In this document: positions 1,741-53,482 of the stretch, piece after piece
How the letters are laid out: each line of letters opens with the position of its first letter
Numbering within the stretch: position 1 is the first letter of the stretch
Assembly (NCBI GenBank): GCA_049515915.1
Contig: JBEKTP010000001.1
Span: 6,855-70,854 of the forward strand
Reading direction: 5' to 3'
DNA from: Patescibacteria group bacterium
Lineage (GTDB): Bacteria > Patescibacteriota > UBA1384 > UBA12157 > JAENIV01
DNA: 64,000 nt
Program-made: the position numbers and the translations under genes
The notes under the pieces: generated by a model
The model's database searches: none
What the model was told of the DNA's origin: nothing
Seen by the model: only the letters and a program-made list of their open reading frames with translations

Positions 1741-2421
1741 TTAAAAGGGTGTTTCATTGTCTGGACTTTTGTAGCCGTGAGTTATTTGGTCACCAACATG
1801 GCGGTATTTGCACCACTTGCAGTCTTCGGCTTCGGCTGGCAAGGGCCCAGATAAAAGATCATCAATAATTTTGGCGAACCTAAGAAAATGCGCCTCATCG
1901 CAAGGAATTTCCAGCCACTTGGGCGGAAAATCTATTTTAGCAATGCCATTCTTGAACTTCACCATGTCTGGATAAAAAATCAAAAGCCCAAGCTTGGTAA
2001 TTTTTAACGACTCGCCGCTACTCGGATTTTCGAGAGCAAATTTATAAGCGCCGAGCTGGGTTTTATACTTTTCGATTTTATCTTCGGCCGGCTGGCTGAT
2101 TTTTAAGTCAATTAAAGTGTGGGTACCATCGCTATTTTTGACCAATAAATCGTATTTTCCTTTGATGTAAACATTCGTTTCCGGCACCGGCATCGATTCG
2201 ACCCAGCCTTCTTGTTTGATAACTTCTCCCTCAGGTAGATCTTTGGAAATGGATTGTAAATTTCTCCCGACTAAATCTCCTTGGAGCCGACTGTTGATCG
2301 CCGCAAAAACTCCCGGCATCGGCATGCTAGGCTGATAGATTCCAGCTTTGACTTTTAAGCAATAGCAAAGCTTACATTCTTCGTAAAGGTAGGCGAAATC
2401 CGACGGTGACAGTTTATACAT
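1741..2421 (-). CDS. Cas4/RecB-like PD-(D/E)XK nuclease with Cys clusters
   Basis: 226 aa. The D..(I)DLK core and a QxxxY motif (TQLGAY) are present. Cys cluster CKLCYC lies at the N-terminus and C175 plus CKWC near the C-terminus, resembling the Fe-S staple of Cas4/AddB-type nucleases. Confidence 0.55.
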   Translation of the reverse strand: MYKLSPSDFAYLYEECKLCYCLKVKAGIYQPSMPMPGVFAAINSRLQGDLVGRNLQSISKDLPEGEVIKQEGWVESMPVPETNVYIKGKYDLLVKNSDGTHTLIDLKISQPAEDKIEKYKTQLGAYKFALENPSSGESLKITKLGLLIFYPDMVKFKNGIAKIDFPPKWLEIPCDEAHFLRFAKIIDDLLSGPLPAEAEDCKWCKYRHVGDQITHGYKSPDNETPF

Positions 2422-3802: not shown

Positions 3803-3823
3803 TCAATCGACGATTTTTAGTTC
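3803..3823 (-). repeat. recurring intergenic motif (instance 4)
   Basis: The plus strand reads tcaatcgacgatttttagttc. It immediately follows the GNAT stop codon and lies about 20 nt upstream of the RBS of the 53-aa ORF. Confidence 0.5.
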
Positions 3824-4321: not shown

Positions 4322-4339
4322 CTCGACGATTTTTGATTC
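4322..4339 (-). repeat. recurring intergenic motif (instance 5)
   Basis: The plus strand reads ctcgacgatttttgattc. It lies 12 nt upstream of the GNAT ATG, and the minus strand reads TCAAAAATCGTCGAGGGATTT. Confidence 0.5.
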
Positions 4340-4442: not shown

Positions 4443-4763
4443 ATGGCCGATGAGAAGACCTACGCGCAAAGACTGGCTGAGACCCAAGCGATGTCCACCG
4501 AGGAGATTCACGAAGCCATCAGAGCGCGCGAGGCAGCTGGAAAACCCTGCGGCATACTCCACAGGGTATTAGCGGATCGTTCCGACGAGCGGGCCAAAAC
4601 GCTCGGTATCGATCCGCCCAGACCAGGAAGAAAGACGTATTCTGAACGGTACTCCGAGACCAGCTCCATGTCTACAAGCGAGATCAGAGCCAAGATCGCA
4701 GAACGCAGGGCTCAAGGCAAGGAGGTCGGTGTCCTCGAGCGCGTTCTTTCAGAACGTGAGTAG
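4443..4763 (+). CDS. high-GC hypothetical protein with internal tandem duplication
   Basis: 106 aa. Two ~45-aa repeats are present (MSTEEIHEAIRAREAAGKPCGILHRVLADR / MSTSEIRAKIAERRAQGKEVGVLERVLSER). GC is about 57% against about 35-40% flanks. It has a strong RBS (GAAGGAGGTGA) and its own terminator. Confidence 0.5.
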   Translation: MADEKTYAQRLAETQAMSTEEIHEAIRAREAAGKPCGILHRVLADRSDERAKTLGIDPPRPGRKTYSERYSETSSMSTSEIRAKIAERRAQGKEVGVLERVLSERE

Positions 4764-4790: not shown

Positions 4791-4830
4791 GAAACCGCCT
4801 AGTAGCTTTAAAGCGAACGGCGGTTTTATT
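4791..4830. terminator. bidirectional rho-independent terminator
   Basis: Hairpin AAACCGCC...GGCGGTTT with a T-run on the plus strand and an A-run upstream. It sits between convergent genes (4443..4763 + and 4894..5421 -). Confidence 0.6.
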
Positions 4831-4853: not shown

Positions 4854-4873
4854 CCTCGGTGATTTTTAGTTCG
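4854..4873 (-). repeat. recurring intergenic motif (instance 6)
   Basis: The plus strand reads cctcggtgatttttagttcg. The minus strand reads TTGACT-N14-TAAAAATCACCGAGGGAAATT, about 20 nt downstream of the last gene of the R-M operon. Confidence 0.5.
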
Positions 4874-4893: not shown

Positions 4894-5421
4894 CTAACTC
4901 TTTTTCTGGTTTTCTTTTGAATAGTACCAGAGAGCCTTGTCTAATGTTCGCAACGATACTTGATATTTTTCTGATAGTTTTCTTAATTCTTCAGTATATT
5001 TTTCCCAAAATCCAAAATCATAGCTTTTGGGCTGTTGCCATCCTAATGACCAAATAGCTCTGAAATCTAATATTGGATATTTATTTGGATATGCAAAATG
5101 TAAAATTACAGATGCAACCGGCCACGATGCACCTTTAATCAATAATAATGATCCAATGCTCGCTCTTTCATTTTTTGTGGATAATGCGAAGCTAGTTATT
5201 TCTCTAATAAACTCGTCGTCATTATTTTCATAATGTTTCTTGGGACGTTTTGACTTCCAAAGCCCGAGTATTACAAAATGCCTTTTATCCAAGTATTTAT
5301 TTGATAAAAACCAGTTTTTTAATTCCTTTTCATATTTTTCGTCGTCCGTTGCCCGAAAAATTGAATCGTATTTATTGCTATATTCTATTATTTTTTCTCT
5401 TGATAGTTTCATTTCTTTCAA
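4894..5421 (-). CDS. hypothetical protein (175 aa), last gene of the R-M operon
   Basis: Long ORF with a 6-nt gap to the upstream glycosylase-like gene and no recognisable motif. Confidence 0.45.
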   Translation of the reverse strand: MKEMKLSREKIIEYSNKYDSIFRATDDEKYEKELKNWFLSNKYLDKRHFVILGLWKSKRPKKHYENNDDEFIREITSFALSTKNERASIGSLLLIKGASWPVASVILHFAYPNKYPILDFRAIWSLGWQQPKSYDFGFWEKYTEELRKLSEKYQVSLRTLDKALWYYSKENQKKS

Positions 5422-5427
5422 TAATTT

Positions 5428-6204
5428 TTATTTCTCGCTTATTATCTTCGGGCACAATGAATTCAAATAACACTTTTGACAATCTGGATTTTTTGGTCGG
5501 CACCAGTTGTGCCCGATTTCCCAACAAGACAAATCAAAAATTCCAGGATAATCCGGATGAAGTTCGCGGGCAGCATATACCAATTCTTCAGAATTTTCTT
5601 TTTTTGTAAAACCAATCCGCTTAAATACCCGTCTCAAATGAACATCTGGCGAGACATCAATACAAATTTTATCTTTTACTTCAATCTTGAAATCTCTAAC
5701 AAGGATATTAGCGGCCATTGTAGAAATTTTAATCCCTACACCCCTAAATTCTTGAAACCTTTTAACTAGCAAGGCACTACTTGGTTTTCCCAACCAAATA
5801 TTTGCCGCATTGCTTTTATATTTATTTTTTATGTCTTGCAAAGCATAAAAAAAATTCTCAGCCATATCAGTATTGAATCTATGAAGTTTCTTATTATTAA
5901 AAAGTTCAATATATTGTTCTTTGCTTAATTTTAATAATTCAGTTATTTCAAAAGTATTTAACTCTTGAGAGATTTTGTAGGGTATAACCCAAGCTCTTTC
6001 GGCGGGGATTTGCCGATCCATAACACAGGCAAGCACAAATGCGTGTGGATATTTATCCAGATTATTTAATAATTTTTCGGCTTGGTTATTATTAGTAGTA
6101 AAGTTGACAATTTCTTTGGGTCTATCCAAAAGAGCCTGACCACGTTTTATCAGTAATTCGCTAATTTCCGCTTTTTTAAATTCATTATCCATCCAATTCT
6201 CCAT
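5428..6204 (-). CDS. endonuclease III-like HhH-GPD DNA glycosylase with [4Fe-4S] cluster loop
   Basis: 258 aa. An HhH motif with Lys (FRGVGIKISTMAANIL) is followed by IDVSPDVHLRRVFKRIGF, resembling Nth GVGRKTA...VDTHIFRV. The C-terminal C-x6-C-x2-C-x5-C (CRPKNPDCQKCYLNSLC) matches the EndoIII/MutY Fe-S loop. Confidence 0.65.
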   Translation of the reverse strand: MENWMDNEFKKAEISELLIKRGQALLDRPKEIVNFTTNNNQAEKLLNNLDKYPHAFVLACVMDRQIPAERAWVIPYKISQELNTFEITELLKLSKEQYIELFNNKKLHRFNTDMAENFFYALQDIKNKYKSNAANIWLGKPSSALLVKRFQEFRGVGIKISTMAANILVRDFKIEVKDKICIDVSPDVHLRRVFKRIGFTKKENSEELVYAARELHPDYPGIFDLSCWEIGHNWCRPKNPDCQKCYLNSLCPKIISEK

Positions 6205-6240: not shown

Positions 6241-7380
6241 TTATAATTCCCCTTCAAATGCGCTAGATAGGATGGATTGTTTGAGAGAGGAAAGATCGGC
6301 GAGCTGGTTTTGCTGAAGGGTTTTGAGTTTTTCGACTTTTTCTCGCAAATTATTGAGATAAGCAACAATCTTTTTTTGTTCCGAAATCGACGGAAGCGGG
6401 ATTCTTTCTTTTTTTAAAATTTTATAATGTCTGCTGTATCCCAAGCTTTCAAGATCTAAATCTTGAAGAGCATAATAAAAATATTTTGGATTGAATTCAT
6501 CTTTCGGATCTATGATTTTGGTGCCATCTGCCCCGATGGCGAAAACAAAATCAATATATTTAAAAATTCGAGTATGGTCTCCAAAAATAATTACCGGCAA
6601 TTCCCCTTGATACGTGGTATATTTATCATTTGTGTAACCGCCAATCAAAGACGCACCTTGATCAACAATTGGATAATTTCCTTCTCTATAGTAATTTGTC
6701 TTAGCAATTCCTTTTATTTTTTTTGGTAACTTTTTAATACATTCGGAAAATTCTATCATTTTATTTTTTTTACTGATATTTTGTAAAACTTTTTTAAGAG
6801 ACGAGCAGAAAATCTGATTTGTTCCTACGAGAGATTTTTGGCGGAGGACGATGGCTTTGTCAATTTTTTCAAAATATTTCTCAATCTTCGCCACGATTTG
6901 TTTTTGGATTTGGAGAGGCGGGATAGGGATTTCGAGATTAGAATATTGTTGGGCATTTATATTGGGTTGTGTAACCTGATTTAGTGTCCTTGAAATAAAG
7001 TTTTTATAATAGGGGCTTAATGAATATAGAAAGAAAAATTTGGGAAGCACTTTATTTTTATCCAGCTTAAACCGAATTAAATAAGATGCGAACAATGCGG
7101 GTTTTGGCAAATCTGTTTTATTAACTAAATACATTCTGCCAACTGAGCCGCTTCGGGCAATTAAAATATCATCATTTTCCAAAGCATATTTTTTGAAAGT
7201 TACTTCATTAGTATCAATAAACTTAGGATTAGCAAGATTTAACATTCCTGAATCATTTATGTCCGTTATCCGAAGATATAAATATGGTTTTTCTTGTAAA
7301 CTTGCTTTAGCCGTAAAACCGTATTGTGGTTTTGTCTTTAATAATTCTCCTATTTTTTTTATCGGCCAGTTAGTTTTCAT
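6241..7380 (-). CDS. hsdS: Type I restriction-modification specificity subunit HsdS
   Basis: 379 aa with two target-recognition-domain halves and conserved LPLPPLQIQKQIVAKIE / IPLPSISEQKKIVAYL repeats. It overlaps the upstream ORF by 4 nt. Confidence 0.85.
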   Translation of the reverse strand: MKTNWPIKKIGELLKTKPQYGFTAKASLQEKPYLYLRITDINDSGMLNLANPKFIDTNEVTFKKYALENDDILIARSGSVGRMYLVNKTDLPKPALFASYLIRFKLDKNKVLPKFFFLYSLSPYYKNFISRTLNQVTQPNINAQQYSNLEIPIPPLQIQKQIVAKIEKYFEKIDKAIVLRQKSLVGTNQIFCSSLKKVLQNISKKNKMIEFSECIKKLPKKIKGIAKTNYYREGNYPIVDQGASLIGGYTNDKYTTYQGELPVIIFGDHTRIFKYIDFVFAIGADGTKIIDPKDEFNPKYFYYALQDLDLESLGYSRHYKILKKERIPLPSISEQKKIVAYLNNLREKVEKLKTLQQNQLADLSSLKQSILSSAFEGEL

Positions 7381-7976
7381 TTTGATTTCCTCATCAGACC
7401 ATTAATGATTTTCCGATCGAAATAAAAAAGGAGTAATCCCAATCTTTGTAAACAGTCAATGAAAACAAAATAAGTAAATTGCCCCATCGGCGTTCGCTGT
7501 AAATCCTGTAAAATCTTTCTTTTTCTCTCATCTATGTGAAAAAACTCAGCGTTAAACCATAAATCCACAATTTCTTCTGTTTTTAAATTTTGATTATTCA
7601 CCTTAAGTCTCATCCCACCGAGAGGGAAATTATCTTTTTTCTCTAATATTTTTCCCCAATTTTCGCGACACCCAACAAGTTCTTTGATGATTTCTTCATT
7701 TTTACAATTTTGAAAAACAAAGTTACAAACTGAATAAAAATTAATCGATGAATTTTCTGCAATAAAATGCCGGAAATCTAAAATAAAGGCTTTTGTCGAT
7801 TGCTCATCCGGACCGGCCGATTTCACAGTTAGACCTTCATTTTCGCTATAGTTTAATTGCAAAGAAACATTTTTATAAAAATTCCTGTTGGAATGAAGTT
7901 TCTGAACTTTATCGTGAAAATCACTTAAAATCCTATCATATTTTTCGTTTACAATATCCTTATTATTAGTTTTCAT
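7377..7976 (-). CDS. hypothetical protein embedded in Type I R-M operon (199 aa)
   Basis: ATGA-type overlaps on both sides (with hsdS and with the 208-aa ORF). No known motif was recognised. Confidence 0.5.
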   Translation of the reverse strand: MKTNNKDIVNEKYDRILSDFHDKVQKLHSNRNFYKNVSLQLNYSENEGLTVKSAGPDEQSTKAFILDFRHFIAENSSINFYSVCNFVFQNCKNEEIIKELVGCRENWGKILEKKDNFPLGGMRLKVNNQNLKTEEIVDLWFNAEFFHIDERKRKILQDLQRTPMGQFTYFVFIDCLQRLGLLLFYFDRKIINGLMRKSK

Positions 7977-8599
7977 TTAACTAATCCAATAAACTTTAAA
8001 AATCTTATTCCTTTTTCAGTAACAATATAGCTGTCATCGATTTTTTGAATCATTATATTTTGTAATAGAACATTAAAAATCGATTCGCGTTCTAATTTAT
8101 CTGGGATTCTGGGCTCATAAATAATGTTGAACAGGTCTTTTGTGAATGACCCAAGATCGTGAGCCCACTTTAAAACAATTTTTGTGTTTGGCACAAAGAA
8201 TAGATTAAGATATAAAAATTCATACAATTCAGACCGTTGAACAAGATAATTGATGAAATTCTCTTTTTCCTGAATTTTTTTTTCCTTTTCTTCAGATTCA
8301 CCTGATATTTTCAAAAATTCTTGATCTAATAAGTTAATTTGTTCTTCTGTCAAAGTAATTCCTTTTTGTTCCAGTGAATTTTCAATCTTTCTGTCAATGT
8401 TTTCCGGTGGCCGCTGAGTCGCTTCCACAGGACCAACTCTAAGAGAGTAAATATTTTTCAGAAATTCTCGGATAGAATCACTGAATTTTAATATAAAAAT
8501 TAGTCCTAAAACGAAAATAGCAACAGGCCATGACAAGACAGCTTTTAAATATTCTGGGATGACTTTAATAATTTCTAATGTCATAAATTTCTTACTCAA
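7973..8599 (-). CDS. hypothetical membrane-anchored protein embedded in Type I R-M operon (208 aa)
   Basis: An N-terminal TM helix (WPVAIFVLGLIFILKF) is followed by a charged helical region. It is abutted to the neighbouring ORFs. Confidence 0.5.
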   Translation of the reverse strand: MSKKFMTLEIIKVIPEYLKAVLSWPVAIFVLGLIFILKFSDSIREFLKNIYSLRVGPVEATQRPPENIDRKIENSLEQKGITLTEEQINLLDQEFLKISGESEEKEKKIQEKENFINYLVQRSELYEFLYLNLFFVPNTKIVLKWAHDLGSFTKDLFNIIYEPRIPDKLERESIFNVLLQNIMIQKIDDSYIVTEKGIRFLKFIGLVK

Positions 8600-9511
8600 T
8601 TATTTTTTGGACGATAAATATTCCTCATGTTTATCAGCTATTTCGAAAAGCCATTGCACAATTTTATCAAGATAGCTTTTTATTTCTTTGGCCTGGCCTT
8701 CGCCAAATGCGATTATTGACAGATATTCTTCTAAGGTTTGTAAAACTAGTACGGATATTGTTTCAATCAGCTGTGGCCTGGGAGTGGCATATTCAAATTT
8801 TGGTAGCCGAAAACCCATCTTATCCTCGTCTCTTTCTAAGTGATCAAAGTCAAGCTCGTGCCAACTACCATGTACATAGTGAGAACTAATTTTGAATACA
8901 AGTTCATATATAGGGTAAAGACCGACATCTTCTGCCTTTCCAGATATTTCTAAGTGTTTCTTTTCGAGTCCCCATTTTGTTTTTTCGAGTTCTTTTTCCT
9001 CAAGATTATCGAGATGTGATCGTTTGTAAGTTTTATTTATACTTTCCAACATCCTTTTTTCAATGGGTAACTTATTATTCCGTTTTTGAATATTTCGAAG
9101 AACGATATTTTCTAGTTGTTTTTCGTAAGCTAACGAAGCCCTTTTATATTTTTTATAAATGTCCGTATCAAAGTATTTTATCAAATAATTTAAATTTATT
9201 ATTGTTTCAGCAAGTGACCTTAAAACAATAAAAGCAATTTCTGTCCTGCGCTCTACGATTAAAAAGGTAAAAGTGTCGTAAAGTTTGTAAATCCTGACGA
9301 GATGCCCTCGAAGAATATCTAATTTTTCTGGTTCAATTTCTTTTTGGGATACAATTCCCGCAATTAAAATGACTGCTTTACGCACATCATTTGCAACAGC
9401 CACAAGATCGACCATAAAATCATTGTTACTATTCCTTTCTTTAGTAATCAATGGCAATTTTAATTCTGGTAATTCTAGCTGGACAAATTCATCTTCCTTT
9501 GGCTCTTTCAT
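8600..9511 (-). CDS. hypothetical alpha-helical protein embedded in Type I R-M operon (303 aa)
   Basis: It overlaps the hsdM stop by 4 nt. An His-rich segment SSHYVHGSWHELDFDH is present. It is possibly a DUF5677-like family member, but that is unverified. Confidence 0.5.
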   Translation of the reverse strand: MKEPKEDEFVQLELPELKLPLITKERNSNNDFMVDLVAVANDVRKAVILIAGIVSQKEIEPEKLDILRGHLVRIYKLYDTFTFLIVERRTEIAFIVLRSLAETIINLNYLIKYFDTDIYKKYKRASLAYEKQLENIVLRNIQKRNNKLPIEKRMLESINKTYKRSHLDNLEEKELEKTKWGLEKKHLEISGKAEDVGLYPIYELVFKISSHYVHGSWHELDFDHLERDEDKMGFRLPKFEYATPRPQLIETISVLVLQTLEEYLSIIAFGEGQAKEIKSYLDKIVQWLFEIADKHEEYLSSKK

Positions 9512-10932
9512 AAATTTAGATTATTTAAAATTTTTTTAATTTCATCTTCTTTTTCTATTATATTTTTAATCAATTCCTCCGGTTTCTTAAGATCTAAATT
9601 CTCTTTCCCATTCGGATTCTTGGCAGAGAGGTCATAATTTTTGGAAATAATTCCTTCATTTTTAACCGCCCAAGAATTTTCAGATTTCGTTTTCTTCTGC
9701 CATTTTTCAAGAGCATCTGCCGTATGTTCGTCTAAAATTGGGTTTTTCTTGGTGTATTTGATACCGGCAGGCGGGTTCAGTTCGTAATACCAAATTTCTT
9801 CGGTTGGTTTGCCTTTTTCAAAAAATAAAAGATTGGTTTTGGGACCTTGGCCGGATGAAGAAACATTGGCAAAAACGCCGGGCGGAAGGCTGATGATGGT
9901 ATGTAAATTACAATTTTCTAAAAGCTCTTTTTTAATATTGACATAGGTTTTTCCAGTTCTAAAAAGCACGCCTTCAGGCAAAACAATTCCGGCTCGGCCG
10001 CCGGCTTTGAGCTTTTTCATCAAATAATACAAGGCTAAAAGTTCGGTATCCGAGGATTTAATCGGAAAACCTTGCAAAACTTCTTTGTCTTCAACGCCAC
10101 CAAAGGGCGGATTAGTCAAAATAATATGGTAGCGTTCGCTTTCCGGAATAGAAGTTAAATCCTCCGCAAAAGTATTAGTTTTGGTAATGTGGGGCGATTG
10201 GAGATTGTGTAAAAGCAGGTTCATAATGCCCAAAAGATAGGGCAGGGATTTGGCTTCATTGCCATAAAAAGTCTCATTTTGGAGAACGGAAAATTGTTTA
10301 GCCGTTAATTTAGGATTTTTTTCTTGGAGGTATTTGAAACTTTCAGCTAAAAATCCACCGGAGCCAGCAAAAGGATCAAAGATTTTCTCGCCGATTTGGG
10401 GATTAATAATTTTTACCATCAGCCGAATAATTGGTCGCGGAGTATAAAATTCACCGGAAGCGCCACCCTCTTGGCCCATCTTTAAAAGCAGTTCTTCGTA
10501 GACTTGGGAAATAATGTGAGTGTCCTCGGGCTTAGAAAAATCAAGTTCATCTAAAAGATTGACGACATCTTTGAAATTGAATGGCGAGTGCATATAGTTG
10601 CGCAGATCATCAAAAAGTGAGGCAATAATGTTTTTTAATGGGGTACCGCGAAGATTTCTTAAATACGGAAACAATTTAATATTTACAAACTCTGATTGTT
10701 CTTTTGCTTCCAGCTTGCTCCAAGCAGACCATTGATATTTTTTTTCGATAACTGGCTGGTATCTTTCCCCAAAAACTTGCGCCCCCAGTCGGCTTTTATG
10801 CTCAATCTGTTCAAAAAGTTTTAAAAATAACATCCAAGAAACTTGTTCGATGTACTGCAAAAGATAGAGTTTGTCACGGCGCATAATATCGCAGGCTGAC
10901 CAGATTTTATTTGAGAGGGTTTGTCTATCCAT
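9508..10932 (-). CDS. hsdM: Type I restriction-modification DNA methyltransferase subunit HsdM (N6-adenine)
   Basis: 474 aa with an HsdM N-terminal domain, the catalytic NPPFG motif (LTNPPFGG) and an AdoMet motif (FDPFAGSGGFL). Confidence 0.9.
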   Translation of the reverse strand: MDRQTLSNKIWSACDIMRRDKLYLLQYIEQVSWMLFLKLFEQIEHKSRLGAQVFGERYQPVIEKKYQWSAWSKLEAKEQSEFVNIKLFPYLRNLRGTPLKNIIASLFDDLRNYMHSPFNFKDVVNLLDELDFSKPEDTHIISQVYEELLLKMGQEGGASGEFYTPRPIIRLMVKIINPQIGEKIFDPFAGSGGFLAESFKYLQEKNPKLTAKQFSVLQNETFYGNEAKSLPYLLGIMNLLLHNLQSPHITKTNTFAEDLTSIPESERYHIILTNPPFGGVEDKEVLQGFPIKSSDTELLALYYLMKKLKAGGRAGIVLPEGVLFRTGKTYVNIKKELLENCNLHTIISLPPGVFANVSSSGQGPKTNLLFFEKGKPTEEIWYYELNPPAGIKYTKKNPILDEHTADALEKWQKKTKSENSWAVKNEGIISKNYDLSAKNPNGKENLDLKKPEELIKNIIEKEDEIKKILNNLNL

Positions 10933-13443
10933 TTAGACTCTTTCCTTTTGATAAAGATATTTTTGTAATTTTTGAATCGCAGACCTGGCTTGTTGGGGCC
11001 CGCCGAGGGAGACAATAATTTTTTCAATCCCGATTTCTTGAAATTTTGGCAAATTGAAAACTTCTTTTCGGGATATGTCTTCGATGCCGCCAATGCGGTA
11101 TTGATCAAGTAGGGCCAAAATAATCGGTTGAGCTTCTCTGCCAAGCGATGATAAAAATTCCTGTTTTCTAATTTCGATTGCCTGGGCCCGTTCATCGCGA
11201 GAAATAATCGGCGCGTCAAAAGCAACATGAGCTAAGACATCAAAAAAGTCAGCGTCTTCGCGATCAATCAGCTTAGCTAGGGCTTCAGGCGAAACGCTTT
11301 GATCTTTTAAATTCGAAAGAAAAGTTTTTCTCTTTTCTTCATCAATCCAGATTTTTTGCAAGTCATCCAAAGTTAGAGCCAGTTTGGCGACTTCTTCTTT
11401 GGAATATTCTTTGTATTCCGCACTTTTTAAGTGATTGCCGCCGACATCAAAAGTAAGATCGGCAGTGGAATAAATGTAGACGTCAACGCCGCCAAGAGTG
11501 ATTTTGTGAGGAGTTTTTCTTTCTTTTTTAAGCTCATAGATTTCTGGTTGGGGTTCAGGGGTGGGAGTGATTCGAAGTTCTCGGCGAACAAAACCGTTGG
11601 CGGAAATTTGCAGGGTAACTTTAATTCTGGGAAGTTTGTCAAAGGCAAAAATTCCGAGTTCATTGGTGGTTGTTTGTAAGTGCTCGTGCGCTTTGGTCAT
11701 CACGGTTACTTTGGCGCCAATAATTGGCGTTTCGGTTTTGGAAATGACAATTTTTCCTTCTAAAAAGCTATCATTAGGACCAATTTCTTCGTCTTCCGCT
11801 TCCTCTTTTTCCTCGGGTGTTAAAACAGAAAATAGTCTGGTGGCATTGACATAATCAATGATGCGAAAATAATATTTACTAGTGGCGGCATCAATGCGAC
11901 TACCACGACCAATAATTTGGTTGAAAAAAACCACTGACGAGATTGGCCGAAGTAAAACAATATTTTTTACCGAAGGCATATCAATGCCCGTGGATAAAAG
12001 ATCAACGGTGGTGGCGATAACCGGTGTTTTCTTTTCCGAATCTTTAAAAGCTTGGGCCAATTCGTGAGCGCCGCCTTCTTCGGAGACAATCGTGACCGCG
12101 TAGTTGGCCGCGCCTTCGGAGGAAAAATGATTTTGTAATTCTTTAGTCATGGCCCGGGCGTGGTCATTATTAACACAAAAAACAATCGTTTTTTCGTAGG
12201 TGCCAAATTTTTTAAGAAGACCGGCGAGATGTTCTGCGATTTTTTTCGTTAGGTTAGGAATGGCGACTCTACGTTCAAACTCACCGGCAGTGTAAAAGGC
12301 TTTGATTTCGTCATCAAATTCTTCGGGATAAAAAACTTCGGCTCCCTGCAATCTTTGTTCTTCAACATCCACGCCGCCTTCTTTATGAAGGTTGGTCAAA
12401 ATTCTCTGGATCATATAATTCGCGAGAAAGCCGTCTTTGATGCCTTGGCGAAGATTATATTCATAAACAGGATTGCCGAAATATTTATAAGTATTAATAT
12501 TATCATCACGCTTTGGAGTAGCGGTCATGCCGAAGTGAATAGCGCCGGAAAAATGTTTTAAAATGTCATACCAAAGATTCCAGCCCGAGCGATGACACTC
12601 ATCAATGATAACCATGTCGAAAAAGTTTTTGGGATAAGTTTCAAAAAGCCGCTTACCATTCTTTTGAGAATAAAGAGTTTGGTAGGTAGTAAAATAAATA
12701 TCTCGCACTTGAGGCGCTTTGCCTTCAATTATCTTTTCGCGGGCGTCTTTAAGAGGACCAAACTCCAATTCATAAGCCTGATCGCGGATGAGCCGGCGGT
12801 CGGCAACAAAAAGAACACGTTTGATATACCCGGATTGGTAGAGTTTCCAGACGGTTTGAAAAGCGACTTTTGTTTTTCCCGAACCTGTCGCCATAGAGAC
12901 CAAAATCCTCTTTTGCTTTTTGACGATGGCTTCGATAACCTTTTGAATAGCTAAAAGTTGATAATAACGAGGATTTTTGCCAAAGGGGGTAATATAGAGC
13001 GGGTATTCAAGCGGATTTTTCTCAAGTTTTTTGGCCAAAACTTTACTGTAACTTTTTAAACGGGCGTAAAGTTCTTCGGGTTTCGGGAATTGTTTGATTG
13101 TTTTTTGAGTATTAGTGATAAAATCAAACTCTTCGATGGCATGGCCATTAGTAGAATAAGCAAAAGAAAGTTCAAGTTTCTCCGCGTAGTCTTTGGCTTG
13201 TTGCATGCCATCCATTGAAGTGTGGTTTTCGTCTTTGGCTTCGACAACCGCGATCGGAAAAGCGTTATTGTGAAATAAAAGATAATCGGCAATCTTATTT
13301 TTTTCTCTTTCAACCCGATCGCCTAAAATATTAACTTTGCCGGCGGTGATTTGAAATTCCCTTTGAGTGTCTTCGTCTTTCCAGCCGGAATCTTTTAATT
13401 GAGGATCAATGAGTTTTGATCTTGTATCGGATTCGTTGAGCAT
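10933..13443 (-). CDS. hsdR: Type I restriction enzyme R subunit HsdR with inserted beta-sandwich domain
   Basis: 836 aa. SF2 helicase motifs are present (MATGSGKT Walker A, DECHR). The C-terminal EcoEI_R_C-like domain is present. An inserted transthyretin/carboxypeptidase-regulatory-like segment (~residues 560-640) is seen. Confidence 0.9.
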   Translation of the reverse strand: MLNESDTRSKLIDPQLKDSGWKDEDTQREFQITAGKVNILGDRVEREKNKIADYLLFHNNAFPIAVVEAKDENHTSMDGMQQAKDYAEKLELSFAYSTNGHAIEEFDFITNTQKTIKQFPKPEELYARLKSYSKVLAKKLEKNPLEYPLYITPFGKNPRYYQLLAIQKVIEAIVKKQKRILVSMATGSGKTKVAFQTVWKLYQSGYIKRVLFVADRRLIRDQAYELEFGPLKDAREKIIEGKAPQVRDIYFTTYQTLYSQKNGKRLFETYPKNFFDMVIIDECHRSGWNLWYDILKHFSGAIHFGMTATPKRDDNINTYKYFGNPVYEYNLRQGIKDGFLANYMIQRILTNLHKEGGVDVEEQRLQGAEVFYPEEFDDEIKAFYTAGEFERRVAIPNLTKKIAEHLAGLLKKFGTYEKTIVFCVNNDHARAMTKELQNHFSSEGAANYAVTIVSEEGGAHELAQAFKDSEKKTPVIATTVDLLSTGIDMPSVKNIVLLRPISSVVFFNQIIGRGSRIDAATSKYYFRIIDYVNATRLFSVLTPEEKEEAEDEEIGPNDSFLEGKIVISKTETPIIGAKVTVMTKAHEHLQTTTNELGIFAFDKLPRIKVTLQISANGFVRRELRITPTPEPQPEIYELKKERKTPHKITLGGVDVYIYSTADLTFDVGGNHLKSAEYKEYSKEEVAKLALTLDDLQKIWIDEEKRKTFLSNLKDQSVSPEALAKLIDREDADFFDVLAHVAFDAPIISRDERAQAIEIRKQEFLSSLGREAQPIILALLDQYRIGGIEDISRKEVFNLPKFQEIGIEKIIVSLGGPQQARSAIQKLQKYLYQKERV

Positions 13444-51357: not shown

Positions 51358-52209
51358 TTATTTTTGACAAGTCGGACAATAATGAGTCCCCCGGCCGCCA
51401 ATGGTCATTCTTTTAACCACCCCGCCGCAGCCGCCTAAACAGGGTTGGCCGACCCGATGATAGACTTTAAGATAATTTTGCATCCCGCCTTTAACCCCTA
51501 AAGCGTTGACATAATCCCGGTCTGATGTTCCTCCATATTTTAACCCAAGTTTTAAAACTTTCAAGACGCTTACGTTAATTTTTTGCCATTCCGCCATCGA
51601 GAGATCTCTAAGTTTCCTCGTCGGCAGCACACCAGCAAGAAATAATGATTCGTCAACATAAATATTGCCAATGCCGGCGATGATTTCCTGATCAGTTAAA
51701 AATTGTTTGATATTCCGATTGGGAATTTTTTTGGCTTTTCTTAACAGGTAATCCACCGTAAAATCCGAAGTGAAGGGTTCGACGCCGTAGCCTTCAAAAA
51801 TTTCCCGAAGTTCTATGTCGGTTAAAACTTTACACCAACCGAACTTTCTTAAATCGTTGAAAAAGAGTTTGCTCCCATTTTTAAATGTAAATATTAACCG
51901 GGTGTTGGTATTGGGCAGTTTGGCATGCCAATCGTGTGAAGGATGGCCGCCGGCCATACGCTCACCGTTTTCGACATAAATTAATTGGCCGGTCAACTTT
52001 AAATGAAATAACAAGTTAAAACCGTTGGATAATTTCATCGAAATCAATTTAGCGCGACGACCAATTTCTTCGATCTTGGCGCCAAGGATATTTTCTTTGT
52101 CACCCTGAAAAGATTTGGTCGTTTCAATTTTAATATCAACTATCTCCTTGCCGATAATCTTTTTGGCTAGACCTTTTTTAATTGTTTCAATTTCGGGAAG
52201 CTCTGGCAT
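51358..52209 (-). CDS. mutM: formamidopyrimidine-DNA glycosylase (Fpg/MutM)
   Basis: It has the N-terminal catalytic PELPEVE, an H2TH domain and a C-terminal zinc finger (CPTC). The start was chosen at MPELPE (52209). Confidence 0.85.
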   Translation of the reverse strand: MPELPEIETIKKGLAKKIIGKEIVDIKIETTKSFQGDKENILGAKIEEIGRRAKLISMKLSNGFNLLFHLKLTGQLIYVENGERMAGGHPSHDWHAKLPNTNTRLIFTFKNGSKLFFNDLRKFGWCKVLTDIELREIFEGYGVEPFTSDFTVDYLLRKAKKIPNRNIKQFLTDQEIIAGIGNIYVDESLFLAGVLPTRKLRDLSMAEWQKINVSVLKVLKLGLKYGGTSDRDYVNALGVKGGMQNYLKVYHRVGQPCLGGCGGVVKRMTIGGRGTHYCPTCQK

Positions 52210-52228
52210 GATATTACCCTTTTGATTT

Positions 52229-53482
52229 TTAAAACAAACTTTCCTGTGACGGCGCACCAGTATTTTTGCTTAGAACCTTGACTTTACCGTAAACTCCGTC
52301 ATAGCCAGGTTCGGTTTCGACTTGACCTATTCTTGCGTTCATTATTCCGGCGGCGATTTGGGGAGGCAGATTATTTTTTAATTCTCCCTCGCCCAGATCT
52401 AAGAGAATCTTAAATTCACTTCCAAGAGTGTTGATAATTTTAAGATATTCTTGCTGAACTTTTTGGCTCGAGGGAGTTACTTTCAGTGCTTCGGCGATAA
52501 TTTCTAAGAGAGGCACCAGATGGACCGAACCAGGAAAATTATTACTTTGAAATCCGACCGGACGGTCGGCCAATTCTTCAACGCGATTGAGGACGCCGAT
52601 GGTCAGTTTCCGACCGCACTTAGGACAAATATTATCAGGATATTTGGTTTCAAACGGATTGGCAACAAGATTACAATTGCGATGGCCGTCAAAATGATAT
52701 TTTCCCTCTTCCGGATAAAATTCGATGGTATTTAAAAATCTTTTTGGATCTTTAGTCTTTATAATGTTGGCGATCTCATTGTAAGTAAAATTATTTTTAT
52801 CGAGTTCAAAAACATTGGCCTCGCGGCCTAAATTGGCCGGACTGTGGGCATCGGAGTTCGAAATTAAGGTTATTTTATCAAGAGCTGATAATCGCCAATT
52901 CATTTCTGGGTCAGACGATAAGCCCGTTTCGATACTGTAGATATTATTCGATAATTCCTCATAGCACTCCTTAATCGAATCAAAGCCAGAGTTCGAGCCG
53001 AAAATACTAAACCACGGCGTCCAGGCGTGGGCCGGGATAATCAGACACTGCGGATTGATTTCAAGAATAATTTTAGCGAGATCCTTGGCAGAAATCCCTA
53101 ATATCGGCCGGCCGTCAGAATAAAGTTTACCTAAGTTGGTGAGGCGATCAATAATCTTGGCCACCGTCGTAAAATTAGGAGCAACAAGAACAGTATGGAC
53201 TCGACGGCCCTTACTTCCTTGATTATACATATTTGATATTTCGGCTGTAAGAATAAATTTCGGATCCTCGGCACGCGAATTTTTAAGTTTCAAAATACCA
53301 CTACCGTCTTCCATCAATTTTTCTTTTAGGTTGGAAAACCAAAACGGATGGGTAAAATCACCCGTGCCGACAAGATCAATCCCTTTGTATTTGGCATAGG
53401 TGGCGATGTGATCAATGTCCATATCGCGGGAAGTGGCCCGAGAATATTTAGAATGGATATGAAAATCAGCAATGATACGCAT
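52229..53482 (-). CDS. PHP-domain protein of the endonuclease Q (TIGR00375) type
   Basis: 417 aa with an N-terminal PHP metal motif (ADFHIHSKYS) and an internal C4 zinc finger (CPKCGRK). Its length and layout resemble archaeal/bacterial EndoQ. Confidence 0.5.
   Translation of the reverse strand: MRIIADFHIHSKYSRATSRDMDIDHIATYAKYKGIDLVGTGDFTHPFWFSNLKEKLMEDGSGILKLKNSRAEDPKFILTAEISNMYNQGSKGRRVHTVLVAPNFTTVAKIIDRLTNLGKLYSDGRPILGISAKDLAKIILEINPQCLIIPAHAWTPWFSIFGSNSGFDSIKECYEELSNNIYSIETGLSSDPEMNWRLSALDKITLISNSDAHSPANLGREANVFELDKNNFTYNEIANIIKTKDPKRFLNTIEFYPEEGKYHFDGHRNCNLVANPFETKYPDNICPKCGRKLTIGVLNRVEELADRPVGFQSNNFPGSVHLVPLLEIIAEALKVTPSSQKVQQEYLKIINTLGSEFKILLDLGEGELKNNLPPQIAAGIMNARIGQVETEPGYDGVYGKVKVLSKNTGAPSQESLF

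Follow-up and report, generated by a model that had tools for sequence, protein, structure and literature searches.

We analysed a 64-kb stretch of DNA (the window), taken from a 132.7-kb peatland-metagenome contig that was binned as a Patescibacteria bacterium, in which two adjacent minus-strand genes end a type I restriction-modification (R-M) gene cluster. The first, HhH258 (5428-6204), encodes a predicted [4Fe-4S] HhH-GPD glycosylase/apurinic-apyrimidinic (AP) lyase-type protein, and the second, p175 (4894-5421), an Ogg2-fold HhH-GPD protein with Pro101 at the catalytic-lysine position and a conserved Asp119. Our preferred reading, to which we give a probability of about 0.4, is that the two genes are a base-excision accessory to a restriction/defence island gained by horizontal transfer. 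It is built on the fold of the two proteins, their conserved catalytic residues, the gene arrangement, the island setting, and the enrichment of homologues beside R-M genes.

Both proteins have the HhH-GPD fold, two-domain and all-alpha with the helix-hairpin-helix (HhH) at the domain interface, and neither scored above the cut-off of any curated family. As a sequence-only reading of this DNA had proposed, the 258-residue open reading frame (ORF) retains the catalytic architecture of endonuclease III (Nth), namely the HhH motif G155-V-G157-I-K159 (GVGIK), an IDVSPD segment with D187, and a loop of the form C235-x6-C242-x2-C245-x5-C251 that is predicted from sequence to bind an iron-sulfur (Fe-S) cluster. 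K159 and D187 were each found in 78/78 family members, and each cysteine in 76-77 of the 78. The 'ISPDVHVKRV...C..C' segment of the family profile aligned to the Asp and Fe-S loops of B. stearothermophilus endonuclease III (E = 3.5e-5), D187 falling on the Asp of 'IAVDTHV' in 1p59/1orn, with a Lys-to-Asp spacing of 28 residues versus ~18 in Nth. Scores against the canonical families were low: 18.2 bits against the Nth equivalog TIGR01083 (cut-off 211.7), 17.8 bits against mutY (cut-off 286.5) and 16.1 bits against Pfam HhH-GPD (gathering score 26.2). The divergence ascribed earlier to the N-terminal half was equally apparent, the match to TIGR03252 (HhH-GPD-type base excision repair protein) reaching 58.1 bits (cut-off 136.5) over residues 38-161 only. 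Identity to solved enzymes was ~10-14%, and an identical 254-residue protein carries the NCBI name 'iron-sulfur cluster loop'. Judged by these comparisons, HhH258 is distinct from canonical housekeeping Nth, as had been expected of a gene in this position, and a tRNA gene adjoins the low-GC island in which it is encoded. The 64-kb window contains no further Nth-like ORF or Fe-S loop motif. The other base excision repair enzymes noted earlier are indeed present elsewhere in the window, as Fpg (51358-52209) and EndoQ (52229-53482). These are adjacent overlapping minus-strand genes in normal-GC DNA (51358-53482), and with their 417-residue EndoQ (1e-50 to PfuEndoQ) and 283-residue Fpg (from MPELPEIE, 7e-45) are the host's core base-damage repair pair.

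The product of the second gene, left as an unknown by the sequence-only reading, is instead an Ogg2-like HhH-GPD fold protein. The position equivalent to the catalytic lysine, set by HMMER alignment and by the 18-residue spacing to D119, is occupied by Pro101; it is proline in 74 of the 77 family members and never lysine. All 77 members have Asp119, which stands 18 residues past the HhH position, the canonical spacing. The match to PRK01229 (Ogg2) amounted to 12.9 bits (cut-off 183), and an invariant WKSxR motif is peculiar to the family. HhH258 and p175 of the window are single-domain proteins; p175-like domains are fused to DUF429, which we take to be a predicted RNase-H-fold nuclease, in two proteins and to EcsC in two. 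One p175 relative gave a weak match to Pfam PF21790 (OGG-like; E = 0.0094), a family to which the window p175 itself gave none. Profile-profile comparison of the HhH258 and p175 families yielded no signal (probability 0.2), and the two are thus not recent paralogues. Both families are large, strongly conserved and spread over Bacteria and Archaea, are common in candidate phyla radiation (CPR) bacteria, DPANN archaea and anaerobes, and show strong purifying selection on their catalytic residues. Two p175 variants stood apart among the homologous loci, which are cited here by L numbers. A metagenome copy on a short contig (L005:2033-2560) carries a nonsense codon (E33*) along with three missense changes; decay of the gene was rejected as an explanation, since the substitutions, five in all, are each G>T, C>A or G>A, which makes low-coverage or oxidative sequencing errors the likelier cause. 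In L116 (9644-10543) the reading frame of p175 continues upstream for a further ~119 codons that include a hydrophobic stretch, which may be an ORF-calling artefact or a membrane-anchored variant.

The genomic context of the two families was surveyed at 80 HhH258 and 80 p175 homologue loci, DNA methylase genes being counted with phmmer seeds for three DNA-methylase classes. Nineteen such genes were found in the 0.85 Mb flanking the HhH258 loci, at a density of 20-32 per Mb within 7.5 kb of the homologue and of 6.6 per Mb at 7.5-10 kb, and 11 in the 0.64 Mb flanking the p175 loci. A methylase gene was present in 10/24 HhH258 loci and 6/14 p175 loci of at least 15 kb and in none of those under 5 kb, indicating that short contigs mask the R-M signal. 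Among the 127 proteins encoded at neighbour positions +-2/+-3, the commonest Pfam families were DNA_methylase (5), DEAD/Helicase_C (5), ResIII (4) and N6_N4_Mtase (3). A survey of 2261 genomes counted 7764 + 6446 R-M genes, or ~6 genes and about two systems per genome (PMC4176335). This corresponds to a background of roughly 1-3 R-M genes per Mb, methylases being only part of these. Measured against this published background, rather than against matched controls, methylases are enriched roughly ten-fold or more near the homologues. A first result of 'no R-M association', obtained by tblastn with the window's HsdR, HsdM, HsdS and p175, was dropped as too narrow; that search had returned 2-4 R-M matches, with HsdR-like matches in 2/80 GTDB loci and no p175 beside any GTDB HhH258 homologue, and its outcome was overturned by the seeds for other methylase classes and by Pfam annotation. 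The R-M-linked members are dispersed over the neighbour-joining tree of the HhH258 family, and the juxtaposition thus arose many times. The restriction linkage suggested by the sequence-only reading is therefore not a one-off, in that DNA methyltransferase and R-M genes are some 10-20 times enriched near homologues of both genes, but it extends beyond hsdS and type I systems, and the 258/175 pairing is rare.

Homologues repeatedly close type I, IIG and III clusters or lie downstream of GmrSD-like genes. In a Paceibacterota locus (L025) HhH258 follows a type III system in the order Mod-Mod-AAA_15/21-Res-HhH258-PDDEXK_1, and in Marinilabiliales (L047) it closes the series HsdM-ORF6N-HsdS-Abi_2-HsdR-GmrSD_N-HhH258. 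Other arrangements were DUF3800...GmrSD_N-UvrD-HhH258 (L166) and a type IIG enzyme-x-HhH258-DUF2779 (L008). HhH258 is preceded by a type III-like Mod gene and an 822-residue gene in L041, and follows a 1025-residue methylase cluster after a 2-nucleotide (nt) gap in L083. It accompanies C5-methylases in L077 and L078, a common methylase-231 aa-~500 aa module in two phyla (L021, L022), and an EcoO109I-type R-M system with toxin-antitoxin genes in L174; in L176 an HSDR_N-like gene lies 5 nt upstream and HsdM-HsdS downstream. For p175, the corresponding arrangements were HsdM-x-HsdS-x-HsdR-p175 with a 5-nt gap (L148), HsdR-YgjP-HNH-PDDEXK_1-UDG-p175-x-Dam (L179) and Mod-Res-EEP-AAA_21/RloB-x-p175 (L092), together with loci where p175 is flanked by HsdM-like and HsdS-like genes (L136), adjoins an Mrr-type gene (L087, L098) or accompanies a GmrSD-like gene (L132).

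Other enzymes of DNA metabolism recur around these genes. Homologues of p175 often adjoin another glycosylase gene, of the uracil-DNA glycosylase (UDG) superfamily in L179 and L164/L165 and of the canonical HhH-GPD type in L132/L133. A 225-260-residue PDDEXK_1 nuclease gene lies near p175 homologues in five loci (L179, 2670-10946; L092, L093, L108 and L109), and PDDEXK_1 genes occur also in the window (1741-2421) and in L025, directly after HhH258. There may thus be a recurrent set of glycosylase and small nuclease. In DPANN archaea (L006:10755-12209, L008:10758-12200, L028:6464-7930), HhH258 is coupled at 5-15 nt to a 480-488-residue DUF2779 + RNase_H_2 protein, a predicted exonuclease.

In the window, the cluster runs on the minus strand from 13443 to 4894. 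It opens with hsdR (10933-13443; type I restriction subunit, 836 residues; Pfam ResIII 7.6e-41, EcoEI_R_C 3e-24, HSDR_N) and hsdM (9508-10932; N6-adenine methyltransferase subunit, 474 residues; N6_Mtase 1e-60, HsdM_N 2.8e-14). The specificity subunit gene hsdS (6241-7380; 379 residues; Methylase_S 1.4e-25 in two stretches) lies further downstream. The description of the locus as an hsdRMS operon was right as to the three subunits, all recognised by Pfam, and incomplete as to its content, since three extra genes stand between hsdM and hsdS (7377-9511), a typical site of accessory defence cargo in type I operons. These are a DUF5677 gene (8600-9511; 303 residues; DUF5677 8e-22) that overlaps hsdM by 4 nt, a 208-residue ORF (7973-8599; 203 residues in public gene calls) and a 199-residue ORF (7377-7976) with a 4-nt overlap with each neighbour. 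The last two match no family, and the DUF5677 protein gave a weak PADLOC match to DitA (1e-6). HsdR itself departs from the usual type I R subunit in carrying, at residues 562-640 between the helicase core and EcoEI_R_C, a CarboxypepD_reg-like beta-sandwich domain. Between hsdR and hsdS, successive genes either abut (0 nt) or overlap by 4 nt. The gaps of 36 nt between hsdS and HhH258 and of 6 nt between HhH258 and p175, given earlier for the ORFs, are correct; likelier starts widen them to 48 and 15 nt. ATG 6192, with GGAG 7 nt upstream, is more likely to be the HhH258 start and gives 254 residues, the length in public gene calls, and ATG 5412 appears the more likely start of p175, giving 172 residues.

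Between 4300 and 13800, terminator-like matches (7 found vs 9.1 expected) and promoter-like matches (28 vs 26.3 expected) occurred at chance level. No minus-strand terminator-like site fell in any intergenic gap of the cluster, the two matches on that strand (10004-9989 and 5557-5542) being intragenic, and no promoter-like match fell in these gaps either. The first convincing hairpin past p175 is at 4826-4792, between the convergent p175 gene and ORF 4443-4763; its 8-bp stem AAACCGCC/GGCGGUUU folds at -17.5 kcal/mol (z -2.47) with a weak U tail, making it a candidate bidirectional terminator. The earlier statement that the stretch is free of terminators up to a hairpin at 4791-4830 was thus borne out, and nothing promoter- or terminator-like parts HhH258 from hsdS. 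Given the tight same-strand spacing and the lack of terminator-like sites between the genes, a single transcript from hsdR to p175 is plausible.

The cluster lies in a stretch with a GC content of 30-37%, compared to ~43% elsewhere in the window. In L001, a longer locus that contains it, this low-GC stretch begins at hsdR and extends over ~15 kb up to a tRNA-Pro gene, which has a Replic_Relax-like gene alongside. This island (L001:2750-18263, or window position 13443 to past the window start) is bounded by tRNA-Pro(GGG) at L001:18190-18263 and the Replic_Relax-like gene; a search of the island's far side for a directly repeated copy of the tRNA end found none. Its other genes encode GNAT, DUF5655, PDDEXK_1, ClpP-like, DUF5678, aspartic-protease-like, DUF3175 and TspO proteins. 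The island part downstream of p175 is further marked by a 17-nt motif, GAACTAAAAATCGTCGA, of which six copies with at most 3 mismatches were found in the window against 0.5 expected, all on the minus strand (225-241, 510-526, 1180-1196, 3807-3823, 4323-4339 and 4856-4872) and with another at L001:16408-16425. The motif is confined to intergenic gaps of that part, none occurring in the window's other 59 kb, and appears to be a promoter or operator common to the small genes of a separate module. Its first copy after p175 (4856-4872, minus strand, GAACTAAAAATCACCGA) marks where the island's next module begins.

From these features we infer an enzymatic activity, the nature of its substrate, and a functional tie to the R-M island that is defensive rather than reparative. 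Both genes would probably be read from the hsdR promoter, along with the type I genes. HhH258, predicted to be active, would flip a base out of the duplex, Asp187 aiding its expulsion, and Lys159 would attack C1' to form a Schiff base and cut the strand by beta-elimination. p175, devoid of the lysine, would hold a flipped base in an Ogg2-like pocket, either excising it as a monofunctional glycosylase that uses Asp119 or serving as a base-flipping reader. The targets would be non-canonical, modified bases of incoming DNA, so that the module would cover phages whose base modifications evade the methylation-sensitive type I enzyme, and the resulting nicks or abasic sites on both strands, perhaps processed by nearby nucleases, would stop replication. 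By analogy with the way GmrSD, Mrr and McrBC accompany type I systems, the pair would then be a type IV-like, modification-directed arm against DNA with non-canonical bases, a proposal that we likewise hold at somewhat less than even odds. A stronger form, which we consider doubtful, makes HhH258 a modification-dependent Fe-S HhH-GPD glycosylase/lyase restriction enzyme whose recognition is widened or gated by p175, in a portable 'base-excision type IV' module placed on type I, IIG, III and GmrSD-like genes throughout Bacteria and Archaea. In that form, the modified or methylated base would be excised and the strand nicked by HhH258 itself, with breaks where both strands are modified.

Several observations weigh against a defence module. 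R-M genes are missing from about half of the well-sampled loci, and direct neighbours are heterogeneous and often housekeeping. Some contexts point to repair, namely lexA-dinB-x-HhH258...addAB in a complete Thermotomaculum genome (L173), xseA-xseB-p175 in three loci (L087, L094, L108) and RecQ-like helicases near homologues. Outside the window, the 258/175 pair was seen in one other lineage only (L114-116, also from peat), where no R-M system accompanies it and a spore-photoproduct-lyase-like gene lies nearby (L116). All-against-all clustering of neighbours recovered no conserved partner of HhH258, and for p175 just xseAB and a lineage-specific aroD/aroE synteny. The 50-60% identity between bacterial and archaeal members is more readily reconciled with a fixed lesion than with an arms race. 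Neither protein had a meaningful match in PADLOC-DB v2. Both families are nearly missing from 72,556 plasmids, with one distant match each: a Tsukamurella TIGR03252-type protein (24% identity to HhH258) and a truncated Deinococcus p175-like ORF near recA and a GIY-YIG gene. Viral contigs supplied four loci with an HhH258 homologue and none with p175. Finally, the background for the enrichment comes from the literature, not from control genes of the same genomes. The four viral loci (L168-L171) are related phage-like IMG/VR contigs in which the homologue, at 8001-8687 and with 45-51% identity, is a lone plus-strand gene among minus-strand genes; no methylase seed matched near it.

Much of this would suit restriction-linked or island-borne repair, a somewhat unlikely explanation that survives better than the other rivals. 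The enzymes would remove oxidised, deaminated or aberrantly methylated host bases, and the genes would travel with R-M systems and mobile islands as they make methyltransferases and nucleases less costly to carry, by analogy with Vsr for Dcm and Mig.Mth for M.MthTI. Repair is favoured by the intact Nth-type catalytic set of HhH258, by the conservation just noted, and by neighbours such as lexA-dinB/addAB, xseAB, the spore-photoproduct-lyase-like gene, an EEP/AP-endonuclease-like gene (L092), the UDG and canonical HhH-GPD genes beside p175, and genes for RecQ-like, UvrD and DprA proteins. C5-methyltransferases, moreover, are the commonest at neighbour positions +-2/+-3 (5/127), and L006 holds a Vsr-Dcm fusion. 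However, the partner systems span type I/III N6-methyladenine (m6A), N4/N6 and C5 methylation, and some are GmrSD-like type IV systems without a methylase, so that no single methylation-derived lesion can explain the link. The window system, in addition, makes m6A and poses no T:G-type problem, type I/III cleavage leaves double-strand breaks that are not repaired by glycosylases, and the host already has Fpg and EndoQ in its core DNA.

We regard it as rather improbable that the two genes are ordinary base excision repair genes of small-genome or anaerobic organisms, prone to transfer and sharing variable regions with R-M systems with no functional tie. Terminator-free runs of same-strand genes are, on that account, the norm in a compact genome, and with no other Nth-like gene in 64 kb HhH258 could be the organism's only Nth-type enzyme. 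The absence of a fixed partner and the heterogeneity of the neighbours speak for it, as do the many housekeeping contexts, which include aroD/aroE-p175 (9 loci), ScpA/ScpB, RNase HII and MgtE (L175), and tRNA synthetases and SRP54 (L177, L178). Methyltransferase density, too, is raised out to 7.5 kb, that is, at the scale of islands as well as of operons. Yet in many independent clades the homologue is the adjacent, same-strand last gene of an R-M cluster after a gap of 0-150 nt, 40% of well-sampled loci have a methyltransferase where a few per cent would be expected, and p175 adjoins a glycosylase or small PD-(D/E)XK/Mrr/HNH nuclease gene far more than a random gene would. Least probable is a split END-like system, overlapping with another of the readings above, in which p175 senses modified bases and passes the DNA to the HhH258 lyase, the HsdR motor-nuclease or a nearby PD-(D/E)XK/Mrr/HNH nuclease: the proline at the lysine position, the DUF429 and EcsC fusions, the small nuclease genes recurring beside p175 and the weak match of one relative to PF21790, the family to which the END sensor was matched, are in its favour, but Asp119 is invariant whereas END sensors have lost their catalytic residues (PMC12191111), the window p175 does not match PF21790, and most members stand alone with no constant nuclease partner.

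What calls for attention is that two large, highly conserved and apparently catalytically intact families repeatedly end R-M operons of differing types. If they act on foreign DNA, an Fe-S glycosylase/lyase would be added to the known restriction mechanisms and useful tools for modified-base detection would be at hand; if they act in host repair, R-M systems would routinely bring their own base excision repair, which bears on carriage cost. Being small and single-domain, both are amenable to direct testing either way. The literature searched contained no description of either family or of a link between them and R-M systems, and to our knowledge the sole HhH-GPD modules known in defence are the catalytically dead sensors of END nucleases.

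Compared to known systems, HhH258 stands closest to the endonuclease III/MutY branch, with which it shares the GxGxK lysine and the C-x6-C-x2-C-x5-C loop. It differs in falling below the nth equivalog and Pfam HhH-GPD cut-offs, in its TIGR03252-like N-terminal half, in its longer Lys-Asp spacing (28 rather than 18), and in being island-encoded and often beside R-M genes. Ogg2 enzymes (Tm1821, archaeal Ogg) use an HhH catalytic lysine. p175 retains the catalytic Asp of these enzymes but has proline for the lysine, is shorter (172-175 residues) and has the WKSxR motif. The ROS1/DME 5-methylcytosine glycosylase/lyases are large eukaryotic proteins with a discontinuous domain, related to HhH258 in sequence at the superfamily level only. 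R.PabI resembles the proposed module in using base excision and AP-lyase activity as the restriction step of an R-M system, but has a different fold from HhH-GPD, recognises a specific sequence in its unmethylated state and has a cognate methylase; a review of its family of restriction glycosylases makes no mention of HhH or endonuclease III (PMC10273834). Mig.Mth (thymine mismatch glycosylase, PDB 1kea) is reported to have a tyrosine at the lysine position and to become a lyase through the Y126K change (PMC9945173). It serves a C5-methylase system, whereas HhH258 has the lysine and its family accompanies all methylase classes. Brig1, Brig2 and Brig3 are defence DNA glycosylases of the UDG superfamily that excise modified bases (PMC13160076). 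They share with our proposal the logic of excising a modified phage base to leave abasic sites that block replication, and the form of small single genes in defence loci; HhH258 and p175 are HhH-GPD proteins, and Brig proteins have neither an Fe-S cluster nor a lyase lysine. The analogies first drawn to Brig1 and R.PabI accordingly do not extend to family membership. END nucleases join a nuclease to an Ogg/EndoIII-like sensor of hypermodified bases that has lost its catalytic residues and matches the PF21790 (OGG-like) family by HHpred (PMC12191111). Common to END and the present genes are an HhH-GPD/Ogg-like module in defence islands, fusions among p175 relatives (DUF429) and the weak PF21790 link; by contrast, HhH258 and p175 stand alone without a phospholipase D (PLD), NucS-like or McrB domain, HhH258 keeping both Lys and Asp and p175 the Asp. 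Brig1-3, END nucleases, R.PabI and Mig.Mth are thus precedents and none is a family relative: glycosylases attached to restriction were already known, and what is new here is restriction-attached glycosylase genes that combine the HhH-GPD fold with intact catalytic residues.

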